From the IMG/VR virus record IMGVR_UViG_3300043446_003177, positions 32,001 through 96,000 of that record: a stretch of DNA of 64,000 nucleotides. One strand, 5' to 3'. Within the stretch, counting starts at the first letter, position 1. Every line of letters starts with the position of its first letter. Shown here piece by piece: positions 53,301 to 59,300 of this stretch. Position numbers: made by a program. The DNA is from a virus.

Positions 53301-56300
53301 TGTCTACTACTGTGGACTTCGTTGAGGGTAAGCAACTTTCCGAACTGAAGAAGCAACTCAACGCCTGCATTCGTGAGGGTCGTGAGATTCAAGATGATGC
53401 ATTTGATTGTGATGCTAACCTGATTCGTTTGTGGAAGTTGGTTAAGAGCATCAAGGAAGATTGCCTGTTCCTGTGTCGCAATGATGGTCCTGCAGCGTAC
53501 ATCGTACAGGATCGAATTGATGCCGAAGGTTATGTGATGACCAATGAGTTTGGTATGTTCAAACTGGTGAATCGTGAGGTATTTTCTCACGCCAACTTTA
53601 CCCTGGAAAAGGCATGGTGAAGATAAATACCAAAAGTATACTCAATTAGAAAATGGAATATAGAAAAGAGTTAGAAGTAAATGCAGCTGCACATGAAGCC
53701 TCCAAGTTCCTCCTTGATTCATTCAATCAGGCAGTGGTTGGTGATATTAAAGTGCTCTCCAATCCCGACCAGTTGAGAAGTGTGCCAGTTGAGGAAGCGT
53801 CCACTGAGGATTGACTTTCCCCCTGATCTGCGCCATACTACGTTTGTTCAATTCAATCCGTGTCGAGCACGGCAAACACAATGGGTTTCAAGACTGACGG
53901 TTCTGTTCACCACGGCGGTGTGAAGAATGAGGATCTCACCGTTCGTATTCTGAATGAGATGAAGATCTACGCTCACACTGTAGAAAAGCGTGGCGGTACT
54001 AAGTGTAAAGAAGACGCTGTTGCTGGTGATCAACTGATCAGCATCAAACGCAAGGAAGGCATCAAGAATGGTTCCTTCGATTGGTTCAACACCAGCGCCT
54101 ACAATGATGTGCTGGGTGATACTTTCTCCTCCTTTCTTTCCAATGTGAAAGAGTTGCGCTCGCTGCCTGAAGTGATCCGCAACGATGATGAATTGGTCCT
54201 GAAGATCCGCGACAATTTCAATCAACTTTGTGAGTTGGCGCTGGATAGTCTCAGCAAGGATCAGATTGTTAACATCCTCAAGCGTGGTCTGATTGATAAC
54301 AACTCTGGTTTTGATGTTGTCGTTAACGACACGAAGTCTCAGGAGGTCTACATCTTCTCCGCTGACGATCATCCCGCAGTTTCCTACATCGAACGTGGTT
54401 ACACTCCCGTTCTCAAAGGCAACGGTAAATCTTCCCGCTCTGTCTACTTTGTAGATGCCGAAGGGAATGTGTATGATTGTGGTCTGCGTTTGCGGGTGAC
54501 CAGTAACAACGGGATCAATGCTTTCCTGGGCAACAGTAAAGCAAACTCTAACTCTCAAGTTGTCATCAAACTGCAGCAGGATAAGGTAGCGAATCTCCTG
54601 CAGCAGGTCGATGCCCGTGTGACGGTCTACTGAGTGTCCACTGGGGGGCGCTGCTGCCCCCCTGACCCCCTACAATACTGACAGATCAAACGACCCCCCA
54701 TGAAAGTCCAACCCATCGGCAGCAACCAAACCGAGGTGTCCCTGGCAAACGGGACTGAGGTTCTGTTCTCCTATCAGACCCCTGTCGCCGCGCTGGTCCC
54801 TGGTCTGGGGTGGATCCGCACTGACAAGAAGTGGAGCGCCACCACCACCAAGCACATTAACGCCTGGCTGCGGAAGAACTGCGGCGGCGATGTCCAGAGT
54901 GTGCCGCAATGGGAACTGGACCAGTTGGTCGCCTTCTGACCCCCAGACCCCCTACAATATTCTCAGATCAAACGACCCCCATGATCCGCTACGAAGTCCG
55001 CTACCAGACCCCCTACAATCAGTGTGAGTGGCGGTCGCAATGGTTCCGCACTCTGGAGGAAGCGGAGCGCATGGTAGAGTTCTACCGCTCCTGCGGTTCC
55101 CCTGCCCACATCGCTCCCTGATCTGCTACAATACTCTCAACCGCAAACGACCCATGAAAGTTTACGCTGTGATCGGTGGCATTGATTATGAGGGTGAGGA
55201 TTTCGATTCCCTCCGCCTGTTCGATTGCCTCTCCACTGCCGCGGCCTATGCCCGCCAGCTGAAGGATGAGAAGGGGTTCGATTATACCATCCTGGAGACC
55301 CGCGAGGTCTGCCTGGAATCCGCCCTCTGTGCCGCCTGAGGTACTGTCCACTCGGTCCTGGGAACGACCCTAAACTGCCCTACACTGATCAAGTCAACCA
55401 AGGGAACCAACCCATGCGCTACAACCCCGCCACCGACCGTGCCGTTTCCATCGATGAGATTGCCGCCCAGTGCCGTAACGCTATCCTGAAGGCAGACGCC
55501 TGCCGCGCCATCGACGCCGCCTATGAAGAGATCCTGGAGTTTGCCCGCTGGGAGAATGATGTCCTGATCCCTGCCTGATACAATGGGAGCGGGTGCGCCC
55601 TGAAAGACGCCCAGCACAAACCCTAACCCCTTTGATCGAATGACCCGCGAACTCGCTCTGTCCCTGCTCCGTCAAGGCACCAATGGTGGCCAGATCCTGG
55701 AGATCCTGGACTCTATCGCTGCTGATGATGCCGCGGCCGGTCCGACCGCTGAAGAGATCCAATTCTGAATCTGACCACTGCCCCCCACGGTTCGCCGCTG
55801 GGGGGTTTACACTATGGGAACCAAAGCAAACGAACCAATGCAACGCCTTGACGTGATCTGCCCCTCCGCTCCCTGGGAGAACACTACCACCGATGAGGAC
55901 CGCGCCTGGGATCTGTGCCTGTCGCTCTCTGAAGAGTATGGGTACGCTCAGGTCCGCCAGAATGGGGTGATCATCGGAGACTACACTGAGGGGCGCTGAC
56001 CCCCGACCTGCTACAATACTCTCAACTGCAACCGACCCCATGGGCATCCCCGTCAACTGCAACGATTCCGCCAGCGTCTGGACTCTGAGCGCCAATCCGA
56101 TCACCGGTACCGTCCGGGTCCGCTGGTTCAATGCCCCCACCATCTGCTACCGTCACGAGGGCATCTCCCGCCGCGCCATCCTGTCGCTGCTCTGGGATTC
56201 CAACCGCTCGCTGGGACAGTGGGTAAACCGTCACTGCCTGCAGTCCCATGTGACCCTGACCGCCTAGGATACTCTCAACAGCAAACGACACAGATGACCG

Positions 56301-59300
56301 AAGACCGCCTGCTCTCCCTCTACGATCAACTGCTCGCCCTGGCCGAGCAGATCGCTGAAGAGTCCTACGGATGCGACCTGGACCGCCTGGACCCTGAGCA
56401 TCTGGAATTTTACGGTGCCCGCCTGACGGAGGATAACCTGGAGGATCTGGCTGCTGATCTGGCCGCGGCCGCCTGGTTTGAGAACTGACCTGCGACCTGC
56501 TACAATACCAAAGCAACCGACACCGACCCATGGCCCTCTACAACATCGCCACCGATCTCCAGACCCGCCAGACCGTATGGGTCAGCACCAACGTCGCCAA
56601 GGGTCGCCCCCAGCTGAACTCCCACCGGGATGATGGTGCTGGCCGTTCGCTTGCTTCCCATGGCGTTGACGGTCTGAGCGCCGCCGAACTGGCAGGTCTG
56701 CACACTGACTACGTTGGGCGGGGTTGACCCCCCCCTCCCCGTGCTACAATACTCTCAAGTCAACCGACCCGACCGATGATCCTCTCCCAAGCATCCCGCC
56801 TCACCGATCGCCAGACCGTGTGGGTTGCCCGCAGGAATGACGACACCCCCTTCTACAAACTGACCACCGACTATGGGGTGCCCGCCACCGTATGGGCAGC
56901 GCAGTTCGCTGAGGTGTGCGCCGCCGACGTGCAACCGATTCAATGGGGGTGACCCCCCACCTGCTACAATACTCTCAACCCAATCGCCCCGTGTCGATCA
57001 CGGGTCACCCTATGTCCCCCGTCCGCATCAAAGACGCCCGCCGTACCCTTGACCGCTTGGGTATGGTCTGCCGTGAGGGTGCTAAGCATCGCATCTACAC
57101 TCACCCAACCCGCCCCGATCTTCGGATGACTCTGCCCCATCGCGGTTCGGGTGGGCGTCCTACGCTGTCCGTTGGTCTGTCGTCCTCATTTCATAAGTTC
57201 GTGGCGGCAGTGGAAGCGGTTCGTTCGTGAAGGGCAGCGGGCAGTGTATGGTATAACGTTATCGTTATGCCCGCCCGCCGCGCCCCCTTATATAAAAATC
57301 GATAACTACCCTAACCTACAACGGACCAAAAGAGCGAGAGAGATATAAAGAGACTGAAAAAATTTTTGGGTAGAAAAAACCGAAAAAGGGGTTTTATAAA
57401 CCTGCATATATAATGGGAAATAACTGAGGTTGTCTCAAAAATTTTTTCGGCGCATAATTCCAGATAATCTTATGAAGACTGTATATTGCATCTACGCGAA
57501 AGGCAGACGCATTTTTGAAAATTTATCAGAGGATGATTTTCAGCAAATCTGGACAGGGCTAAATCAACTAGTCTCGATATATACGGATGTCGAACGAGAG
57601 GATCTGAGTTTTACGCAAATAGAAATTGAGTAATTGACTTATTCAAGACAATAGACTAAAATTGATCTGAGGTTACTAAAACTTATGGCAAAAGGATTTA
57701 CTGTTAAAACTGTTGCGCCTAAACCCAAAGCCACTGGCGAAGATTGGGATTATGACGCAATTAAAAAAAGAATGCAAGGTAAGAACATTGTATTCTGTCT
57801 ACCTGGGAGGGGATGCTCATTTCTCTTCCTGAAAAATTTCGTGCAACTTTGTTTTGATCTCGTCCAGAATGGAATGAGTATTCAAATTTCTCAAGATTAC
57901 TCGTCGATGGTAAACTTTGCACGTTGTAAGTGTCTCGGAGCAAATGTTCTGAGGGGTCCGAAGCAGATTCCCTGGGACGGTAAGCTTCCTTACGATTATC
58001 AACTGTGGATTGATAGTGATATCGTATTCACCACTGAAAAGTTCTGGCAACTCTGTGATCTGGCTTTCCCAGAAGAAGGGGAAGAGCGTGAAATCGCTGC
58101 TGGTTGGTATTGCACAGAAGATGGTTCAACCACTTCCGTTGCTCACTGGTTGGAAGAAGATGATTTCCGTAAGAACGGTGGCGTCATGAATCATGAAACA
58201 CTTGATACCATGAGCAAGCGTCGCAAACCATTTACTGTCGATTACACAGGATTTGGTTGGGTTCTGATTAAGAACGGTGTCTTTGAAAATCTGGAATATC
58301 CTTGGTTTGCACCTAAGATGCAAGTCTTTGAGTCCGGTAATGTACAAGACATGTGTGGCGAGGATGTCTCATTCTGTCTAGATGCTAAGGATGCAGGCTT
58401 TGAAATCTGGTGCGACCCTCGTGTTCGCGTCGGTCACGAAAAGACTCGTATCATCTGATGAAATACAATATTCTTTATAACGGTCGGAAAATATATCAAA
58501 GCCTCTCACAAGAAGAGTGCTTAGAGATACTGCAAGACTTTTCTGAAGAATATTATGAAAAAGATTCTGATATTGATGTAAACTTAATTGAATTGGAGGA
58601 AATCTATGGCGAAGAGACCAGCACTGGGAAACAAGATTGTAATTGAGTCAAAACCGAAGAAAAGTCGTCAAGGACAAGGTAAACATACTAAATATTCAGC
58701 AAGCAGCCGTAATGGCGCTGGAAAACGTTACCGAGGTCAAGGTAAATGAGCGAACCTACAGAATATAAGTGGGAATGCGGAAAAGTTAATGGGGGTAATC
58801 CTATTGTGACTTCATATTATGATAGTCCCGATATGCCCACACCAGTAGAAAACAGAGAAACTACAGAAACTCCTGTAGAGTCTTCTCCAGAATAAGAATC
58901 TTAAGGGCGCTTCGGCGTCCTTTTTTATTAGCCGGATTCTCTCTATGTATTACCTAGATTCCAAAGATGAATGGGAGTCTATACATTCAAAAGATTTGTG
59001 GGTTTATAATAAATTGTTTCTGAGTCATCGTCTTGGATATCTTTGTGGACCTCCAGGAGTCCCAGTACCAACACCAGGACATTATATTGTGCGTCCATCT
59101 TTCAATTTATTGGGTATGAGTCGGTTTGCTCGTATAGAATGGATAGAATCCTCTACAGAGCACCTTCATCCGGCTGAATTTTGGTGTGAAATCTTTGAAG
59201 GAGAACATATTAGTGTTGATTTTCAAAATCGCTTACCAGTTCTTGTTGTACTTGGTGAAAGAGATCCGGAAAATCCTCTATATAAATGGAAAAAATGGTC

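Follow-up and report, generated by a model that had tools for sequence, protein, structure and literature searches.

Why should an AT-rich phage genome carry a single short, GC-rich run of very small genes, each preceded by a version of the same intergenic unit? The question arises from IMG/VR record IMGVR_UViG_3300043446_003177, a viral sequence of 172,232 bases with an estimated completeness of 81%, whose nucleotide matches are to T4-like myoviruses of Synechococcus and Prochlorococcus. We analysed bases 32001-96000 of this record, a stretch of 64,000 nucleotides referred to here as the window. A preliminary description, made from the sequence alone, had noticed 11 open reading frames (ORFs) packed into about 2.6 kb, with a GC content of roughly 60% as opposed to roughly 35% in the structural genes. 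Both observations hold: the sequence and the ORF list give 11 ORFs of 42-79 amino acids (aa), all on the plus strand, with per-gene GC contents of 0.57-0.64 and third-position GC contents (GC3) of 0.62-0.86, vs 0.366 for the whole genome, in which this island is the sole stretch of more than 1 kb exceeding 0.55 GC. The coding share of the island is about 80%. We number the genes 1 to 11 from left to right and refer to each gene with its preceding unit as a cassette (coordinates in Table 1). Our main result is that the unit between the genes, a module of ~25-45 nt, is the seam along which cassettes are gained, lost, replaced and reordered among related phages.

The module as the seam of cassette exchange

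An exact-match scan of IMG/VR with the 16-nt core of the module as query returned at least 119 stretches, and all counts of related loci given below refer to the matches listed. The same extended module (a C-run, TGA, a TG-type extended -10, ACTCTCA, a CAAC/CAAAC leader and ATG) occurs in about 90 of them, on contigs of uncultured T4-like cyanophages, where local GC contents of 0.55-0.62 lie inside loci of 0.35-0.50. The exchange site is fixed: it is located between a gene for a DUF6267 protein and a gene of family phrog_1574, upstream of baseplate genes, with gp25 and gp6 following a few kb downstream of the locus in the related contigs. With the window genes as tblastn queries, DUF6267 was found on the left in at least 53 loci and phrog_1574 on the right in at least 65. 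In the 28 loci that include both anchors, the two are spaced 2.3-6.5 kb apart and enclose 5-21 cassettes each, with a mean GC content of 0.59 in the island vs 0.45 and 0.38 in the flanks.

For a census of cassette content, GC3-rich ORFs were called in 90 loci and then clustered. This yielded 799 genes in at least 107 families, and 554 of the genes have a -10-like box and a C/A-rich leader of their own. The families represented in the window recur in 3 to 59 loci each. Gene order varies from locus to locus (for example, the families of genes 6, 2, 1 and 4 swap their relative positions), and pairwise identities across loci are almost uncorrelated between families (rho -0.2 to 0.5), so that each cassette has a history of its own. 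The preliminary description had taken the array for a cassette library, to be judged by comparing relatives, and the comparison of ~90 contigs bears this out: one fixed site, 5-21 genes, at least 107 families and a shuffled order.

The same description had named breakpoints in the module as the test of this idea, and between close relatives the ends of indels and replacements do concentrate there. All locus pairs with at least 92% identity were included in a breakpoint census, which comprises 31 unique events, either indels or replacements. Of the 74 ends that these have inside islands, 52 (70%) fall between -30 and +35 nt of the start of a -10 hexamer, vs 19% of random island positions. Loci L035 and L039, for example, have flanks that are 97-99% identical, and a two-gene block present only in L035 is bounded by identical 26-nt copies of the module; L118 has an extra two-gene block relative to L035, inserted between hairpin/-10 and leader. 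At several junctions the matches on the two sides share an overlap of 28-43 nt, the pattern that exchange between repeats would leave, and this shared sequence points to homologous exchange as the likely mechanism.

In blastn alignments of the window island with the other loci, most matches begin at positions -18 to -1 relative to a -10; the matches stop either immediately ahead of the following -10 or right past the following leader. When upstream regions are anchored on the -10, pairs that share the upstream gene alone are similar up to about +11, and pairs that share the downstream gene alone are similar from about +12 onwards. We give the breakpoint census more weight than this ungapped identity profile, since the profile is blurred by length differences. 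The loci near the window's own variant (L129-L132) represent one population, in which no indels were found.

Architecture of the module and codon usage of the island

In the window, the relatedness of the intergenic units noticed by eye was recovered by a repeat search (repeat families D1-D4). The string CTACAATAYT has six copies in the island vs 0.3 expected per window, and the five copies of the 16-nt core in the 172-kb genome (at most two mismatches) all lie within the island. A distance of 26-33 nt between -10 and start codon had been reported for all but one gene; we find the -10 starting 27-33 nt upstream of the ATG in nine genes, but there are two outliers, namely gene 5 at 61 nt and gene 11, whose leader contains a hairpin, at 47 nt. 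The remark that a TAG stop codon itself forms the -10 of gene 8 is correct, as this stop provides the first three bases of a TAGGAT hexamer that lines up with the other -10 hexamers. Likewise, the TGA stop of gene 2 (55119-55121) falls inside the module of gene 3. A module piece of 16 nt had also been reported inside gene 2. An exact match does exist (55004-55019, repeat family D4); however, it encodes YQTPYN, a motif kept in most members of the gene 2 family, and coding constraint on this motif accounts for the piece.

Among 596 unique upstream regions, 337 have a TACAAT-like -10 (at least five of six positions), 222 copies being exact, and 170 of the 337 carry TG where an extended -10 has it. 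From the end of the hexamer to the ATG there are 21-27 nt. A TGA often precedes the hexamer by 6-8 nt, which makes the stop codon of the previous gene part of the unit. The upstream part of the module is C-run/G-run and not AT-rich, the G-run tending to come before the C-run in the consensus, and 127 of 323 unique related modules have a G/C-run hairpin (at most -12 kcal/mol) within 50 nt upstream of the -10. Conservation continues past the hexamer with ACTCTCA, CAAAC/CAACC and a C-run, in this order. Leaders had been described as A/C-rich and devoid of a Shine-Dalgarno (SD) sequence, in agreement with 422 related leaders, which consist of 75% A+C and 14% G and contain an SD-like 4-mer in 11% of cases. 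The start region (-20 to +21) has a mean folding energy of -2.6 kcal/mol, compared with -8.1 kcal/mol for internal windows of the same genes.

Because a TGn-extended -10 can function without a -35, and picocyanobacteria often start translation without an SD sequence, the module reads as a putative compact promoter of the host type, joined to a leader for SD-independent initiation. With the usual distance of 5-9 nt between -10 and transcription start, the leader would be ~15-20 nt long, and the mRNAs would consequently not be leaderless.

A host origin of the module was considered and rejected: the exact module 25-mer is absent from 185,579 prokaryote genomes, and no true module is present in 401 Synechococcus-family genomes at up to two mismatches. 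Forty-three of these 401 genomes contain one to three copies of a sequence matching the module core at 17 of 19 bases (CTGCTCCAACACTCTCAAC; loci L213-L218). Its context is constant, with GATCCG and CGGATC arms on either side, no Rfam family covers it, and its similarity to the phage module is probably a coincidence. In L012, L029, L069, L094, L107 and L112, the exact 16-mer is found in a different, conserved AT-rich context (GC 0.42-0.47) and probably represents a promoter-like element of some other phage group, unrelated to the module.

The contrast between the island and its genome extends to codon usage, GC3 being 0.74 in the island vs 0.24 in 81 long ORFs elsewhere in the genome. Five tRNAs are encoded by the phage, reading GGA, TTA, ACA, CTA and GCA; these codons account for 7, 0, 0, 0 and 8% of their synonymous sets in the island vs 47, 27, 32, 11 and 47% elsewhere. 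A pooled set of 40,840 codons from unique cassettes was compared with 20-kb loci of GC-rich Synechococcus/Cyanobium, the cyanobacterial loci being fetched via the phage ferredoxin; psbA, sought as a host-like gene, is absent from the 81%-complete record. Relative synonymous codon usage (RSCU) of the cassettes correlates with that of the GC-rich loci at r 0.76-0.85 vs r -0.41 with the phage's own long ORFs, and the latter correlate with Prochlorococcus at r 0.9. As a description, then, the earlier claim of codon tuning to a GC-rich host is accurate, including near-avoidance of the codons read by the phage tRNAs. The island prefers C-ending over G-ending codons.

The GC-rich composition is common to all related contigs, and every family holds a GC3 of 0.68-0.79 in spite of ~45% synonymous differences (proportion of synonymous differences, pS, 0.43-0.55). 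Since synonymous sites have diverged strongly while GC3 stays high, the GC-rich composition appears to be actively maintained. A telling case is gene 6 and its homologue S-CREM1_138 of a cultured estuarine cyanophage: 51 of 53 residues are identical (96%), yet 31 of the 53 codons differ synonymously, 25 of the 35 nucleotide differences are G/C here and A/T there, and GC3 is 0.74 vs 0.39. One and the same protein is thus written in two codon styles, depending on its place of residence.

Interpretation and comparison with known systems

The preliminary description had compared the array with the promoter(early)-stem-loop elements (PeSLs) of T4-type phages, and this is the right comparison. The PeSL definition goes back to RB49/phi1, and T4/PST and KVP40/nt-1 have since been added (Arbiol et al. 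2010, PMC2839356; Comeau et al. 2014, PMC4122927). Such a unit combines the stop codon of the upstream gene with an AT-rich region, a sigma-70 promoter, a stem-loop that is often polyG/polyC, an SD sequence and the next start codon; PeSLs are dense among the ORFans of hyperplastic regions, coincide with the breakpoints of indels and replacements and can give rise to mini-circles (PMC2839356, PMC4122927). Cyanophages are not covered by these two papers, and in S-PM2 PeSLs were judged too sparse to explain the variable region (Puxty et al. 2015, PMC4503421).

The island shares with PeSLs a repeated intergenic unit that combines an upstream stop, a predicted host-type promoter, sometimes a polyG-loop-polyC hairpin and the next start. 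In both, the units are dense between small ORFans in a hyperplastic region of a T4-type genome, and breakpoints between close relatives lie in the unit. The island units differ, however, in having neither a -35 nor an AT-rich upstream region, about half of the TACAAT-like copies being of the extended TGn form; their leader is conserved, unstructured, C/A-rich and without an SD sequence (SD-like 4-mers in 11% of 422); a hairpin accompanies only ~40% of them; and they occupy one fixed site across an uncultured cyanophage lineage. The chief difference is an array that is GC-rich, with host-like codons, inside an AT-rich genome. Logic, location and breakpoint behaviour are thus those of PeSLs, and what is new is the GC-rich, host-codon form that dispenses with -35 and SD sequence.

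The explanation that we favour, with moderate confidence, is a hyperplastic early-gene region made of self-contained cassettes, i.e. a GC-rich variant of PeSLs without -35 or SD sequence. Each cassette would comprise a host-type -10, usually TACAAT, extended (TGn) in about half of the cases and without a -35; an A/C-rich, unstructured leader of ~15-20 nt lacking an SD sequence; a microgene of 40-80 codons; and a TGA stop inside the next module, ~40% of the modules being preceded by a G-run/C-run hairpin. By analogy with what has been proposed for PeSLs, the seam would operate through homologous recombination between module copies, carried out by the general recombination machinery of the phage. 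If each module acts as a promoter for a host sigma factor, every gene would be expressed on arrival, wherever it has landed. The most likely reason for the host-style codons would be that the microgenes are translated as soon as infection begins, on the tRNA pool of the host.

More tentatively, and as a possibility that we would not yet bet on, this AT-rich cyanomyovirus lineage may selectively keep a second "codon dialect": a library of more than 100 immediate-early microgenes exchanging at a fixed site, with -10-only promoters, SD-less leaders and host codons for translation before the phage tRNAs. If so, expression timing and not ancestry would set the composition of a gene, and a protein would be recoded on moving between the island and AT-rich backgrounds, as the pair of gene 6 and S-CREM1_138 suggests.

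Several points weigh against these proposals. The enrichment of breakpoints at the module is partly to be expected from survivorship, because genes fill ~80% of the island and events that leave genes intact break between them. As the module itself was the query of the IMG/VR scan, the scan says nothing on how often the site is module-less in other lineages. A scan for the full -35/-10 consensus passes just one of the 11 window units (gene 9), a PeSL-type hairpin is found at only 2 of the 11 window modules (genes 1 and 6) and at 39% of related modules, and promoter activity, start sites and timing are predictions made from the sequence. As for codon usage, GC1 (0.60) and GC2 (0.45) of the island are raised as well, which fits general GC pressure or a GC-rich origin equally, and the codon match is to GC-rich picocyanobacteria as candidate hosts.

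What the module does could be read differently, as an RNA-level signal along one polycistronic early transcript (serving translation initiation, RNA processing or the binding of a translational regulator), with TACAAT being part of the RNA signal. We consider this unlikely, though deserving of a hearing: ACTCTCA, CAAAC/CAACC and the C-run are conserved well past the needs of a -10, the distance to the ATG is tightly fixed (21-27 nt), a -35 is absent and the start region is strikingly unstructured. On the other hand, 222 exact copies of TACAAT and a TG at the extended position in 170 of 337 copies correspond to the textbook form of a -35-independent promoter, the G/C hairpins upstream of 39% of the modules fit a terminator-then-promoter design, and copying of whole modules by recombination would fix the distance anyway. 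RNA signal and promoter are compatible with each other, and the leader half may well be a translation signal. GC-richness, in turn, might be a by-product of exchange: frequent recombination at the modules would make the island a hot spot where GC-biased repair of heteroduplexes pushes all codon positions towards G/C, and no selection on codons would be involved. This we hold to be improbable. The fact that cassettes do not share their histories with one another or with the flanks (rho -0.2 to 0.5), the many indel events, the elevation of GC1 and GC2 and the gradient-like, intermediate GC content of the flanks (0.44-0.48) are in line with such repair, but a symmetric GC bias does not predict the preference for C-ending codons or the match to host RSCU (r up to 0.85), and this detailed agreement points towards selection rather than biased repair. 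Moreover, GC-biased conversion is not known for T4-type recombination.

Another source of the composition would be recent import from a GC-rich donor, either a host or a GC-rich cyanophage, with the modules as donor promoters. The sharp compositional step at both edges, the host-like codon usage and the rise of GC1 and GC2 alongside GC3 are what such an event would leave behind; nevertheless, we regard it as very improbable, as the same site is used in ~90 related contigs whose anchor proteins are 15-25% different, all families combine a pS of 0.43-0.55 with a GC3 of 0.68-0.79, the module is absent from the 185,579 prokaryote genomes and, at two mismatches, from the 401 Synechococcus-family genomes, the relatives of gene 10 are confined to short metagenome contigs, and no GC-rich phage backbone bearing the module was seen among the flanked loci. 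On these grounds we take the composition of the island not to be a fresh import. Finally, the array resembles an integron in being a one-way series of small, mostly unknown genes on a fixed platform, with content that varies between relatives and an anchor cassette (the gene 10 family) at one end, which could mean that a dedicated site-specific recombinase uses the modules as attachment sites. This idea is already disfavoured, to the point that we would be greatly surprised to see it confirmed: integrons have an adjacent tyrosine-recombinase integrase and attC sites, and their cassettes lack promoters, whereas here neither the anchor genes nor the cassettes revealed an integrase or recombinase domain, a promoter-like unit accompanies each cassette, the modules are direct repeats and not attC-like imperfect palindromes, and junction overlaps of 26-43 nt fit homologous exchange.

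The "ORFanage" or hyperplastic regions of cultured cyanomyoviruses (S-PM2, Syn1, S-RIM44, S-CREM1) likewise contain small hypothetical genes, in runs close to those for the baseplate; gene 3 has homologues in such runs in Syn1 and S-RIM44, and gene 6 has one in S-CREM1. In contrast to the island, these regions have GC contents of 0.37-0.53 without GC-rich islands, and the module core is present at background frequency. No module array was found in cultured phages, where partial matches occur in S-SZBM1 and S-RIM14, plus a short one in a Bacillus phage. Core matches in scans of S-SZBM1, S-CREM1 and Syn1 were at control level, with the exception of the S-SZBM1 unit. There (OL473597.1; L126:3970-4030), one complete module, made up of a G/C hairpin, TGA, TAGGAT, ACTCTCAAC and a CAAACGACCC leader, precedes SSZBM1_16, a 61-aa gene with a GC3 of 0.74, and a looser unit precedes SSZBM1_15. 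As S-SZBM1 is in culture (on Synechococcus CB0101) and carries a complete module, bench tests are possible.

Looser, AT-richer module-like stretches are located before Syn1_082 (L127:3930-3964) and S-CREM1_138 (L125:3940-4001). They consist of a C-run, TGA and another C-run, followed by TAGACT or TATGAT; in Syn1_082 the hexamer ends only 6 nt upstream of the ATG. Since homologues of genes 3 and 6 in cultured phages have such stretches upstream, the upstream half of the module may predate the GC-rich lineage and reach beyond it.

Few viruses of seas and lakes are as abundant as T4-like cyanophages, whose variable genes mostly lack a known function. The island adds comparative evidence for PeSL-type cassettes in cyanophages, where they had formerly been judged unimportant, with a pool of more than 100 families at one site. 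Neither the module string nor GC-rich cassette islands in cyanophages turned up in literature searches, and a search for mapped cyanophage early promoters gave no usable paper. Two opposite codon styles in one phage genome amount to a natural experiment on codon usage, one style matching a GC-rich host and the other being a Prochlorococcus-like, AT-rich usage served by the phage tRNAs. The long-standing idea that cyanomyovirus tRNAs compensate for codon mismatch (PMC3152331) thereby becomes directly testable for each gene class. Furthermore, the module offers a sequence handle to pull genes that are likely expressed in the first minutes of infection from metagenomes; such genes would be prime candidates for functions in host takeover and counter-defence. 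For the microproteins at hand, a host-takeover or anti-defence role is a guess from their position and size.

Products of the microgenes and neighbouring features

The common cassette families are present in 14-59 loci each, with ratios of nonsynonymous to synonymous differences (pN/pS) of 0.3-0.8 (uncorrected), and four of them match PHROGs. Recurrence, pN/pS and PHROG matches together argue that the microgenes of these families are real genes. Hints on function are few: genes 1-10 match no Pfam family significantly, the PHROG matches of genes 1, 3, 6 and 7 are to function-unknown families only, and gene 2 is found in the protein atlas solely in unnamed clusters.

Table 1. Features of the cassette island and its surroundings (window coordinates)
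Feature	Position	Strand	Basis or remark
Left anchor gene, DUF6267, phrog_455	52697..53620	+	kept left of island in related contigs
257-aa gene adjoining island	53860..54633	+	inside island in some relatives
Whole GC-rich cassette island, 11 microgenes and modules	54634..57230	+	GC content; all module copies of the genome are here
G-run/C-run hairpin before first module, PeSL-type, 7-bp G/C stem	54643..54662	+	fold
-10-like TACAAT, gene 1	54671..54676	+	sequence, repeats
Gene 1, 79 aa, DUF8033 / phrog_5643	54700..54939	+	family in 29 related loci
-10-like TACAAT, gene 2	54953..54958	+	sequence, repeats
Gene 2, 46 aa	54981..55121	+	family in 50 related loci; pN/pS 0.31
-10 TACAAT, gene 3, preceded by TGC (extended -10)	55127..55132	+	sequence
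Gene 3, 61 aa, phrog_17343	55154..55339	+	homologues in Syn1 and S-RIM44
-10-like TACACT, gene 4	55381..55386	+	sequence
Gene 4, 54 aa	55414..55578	+	family in 39 related loci; pN/pS 0.44
TACAAT right after gene 4 TGA stop, atypical spacing, 55 nt before gene 5	55579..55584	+	sequence
Gene 5, 42 aa, conserved acidic C-terminus ending IQF	55640..55768	+	family in 56 related loci
C-run/G-run hairpin directly upstream of gene 6 -10	55780..55806	+	fold
-10-like TACACT, gene 6	55808..55813	+	sequence
Gene 6, 53 aa from likely start, phrog_17176	55838..55999	+	ORF opens at 55814 (61 aa)
-10 TACAAT, gene 7, with TGC (extended -10)	56012..56017	+	sequence, core scan
Gene 7, 75 aa, phrog_7365	56040..56267	+	PHROG match; related loci
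TAGGAT, -10-like, gene 8; TAG is the gene 7 stop	56265..56270	+	TAGGAT unit also in cultured S-SZBM1
Gene 8, 64 aa, acidic	56294..56488	+	related loci
-10 TACAAT, gene 9, with TGC	56501..56506	+	TTGAGA, 17-nt spacer, TACAAT
Gene 9, 65 aa	56530..56727	+	apparent distant paralogue of gene 10
-10 TACAAT, gene 10, with TGC	56745..56750	+	sequence, core scan
Gene 10, 58 aa	56776..56952	+	family nearly always last cassette before right anchor
-10 TACAAT, gene 11, with TGC; longer leader with hairpin 56988-57004	56965..56970	+	sequence, fold
Gene 11, 72 aa, orphan HicA-like protein	57012..57230	+	fold; phrog_18430 "toxin"
Strong hairpin at right island edge, possible terminator	57232..57285	+	fold
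Right anchor gene, 257 aa, phrog_1574, weak glycosyltransferase likeness	57685..58458	+	kept right of island

The small gene 1 protein has homologues in many phages that are not related to one another, among them those of Pectobacterium, Cronobacter, Ralstonia, Burkholderia, Prochlorococcus, Listeria and Streptomyces. The acidic tail and terminal IQF of gene 5 recall SSB-type acidic C-terminal tips, the partner-recruiting ends of those proteins. In gene 6, the internal start codon at 55838 is favoured by the PHROG match and the lengths of the relatives, and the -10 spacing fits only there; the hairpin upstream of this gene precedes members of its family in other loci as well. Genes 9 and 10 look like distant side-by-side paralogues, sharing an LxTRQTVWV motif and two DNA matches of 16-17 nt (D15, D19). 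The AlphaFold model of gene 10 is too poor for a structure search (pLDDT 68, pTM 0.29), profile searches of PDB sequences with the families of genes 10 and 11 gave nothing usable, and relatives of gene 10 were found only on metagenome contigs of up to 61 kb.

Gene 11 is the sole microgene with a recognisable, HicA-like fold, as judged from its predicted structure. The AlphaFold model (pLDDT 91.1) has the elements H-E-E-E-H, and its best structural matches are 1whz and the HicA chains 6g26_E/F, 6hpb_A and 4p78_C (TM 0.54-0.75). With the HicA toxins of type II toxin-antitoxin systems it shares this predicted alpha-beta-beta-beta-alpha fold and a conserved histidine, His26 being invariant across six family members. 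It differs from them by a Pfam HicA_toxin score below the gathering threshold (17.2 bits at a cut-off of 27), by its place in a phage cassette with a module of its own and by the lack of an adjacent HicB antitoxin, the neighbours being genes of 58 and 53 aa without a HicB match. All six members of the gene 11 family match Pfam HicA at sub-threshold level (best E-value 2e-4), and in other loci the next genes are other small cassettes.

At the right edge, the hairpin following gene 11 sits exactly at the GC step from 60% to ~35%. Its predicted folding energy is -29.9 kcal/mol (z -2.9), and none of 200 shuffled sequences folds equally well. On the left, the 3.6 kb preceding the island (51000-54600) have an intermediate GC content of 0.43-0.45, compared with 0.366 for the genome. 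The 257-aa gene in this region (53860-54633, GC3 0.57) is located within the island in L055, L078, L013 and L124, and for this reason behaves as a larger, less GC-rich cassette.

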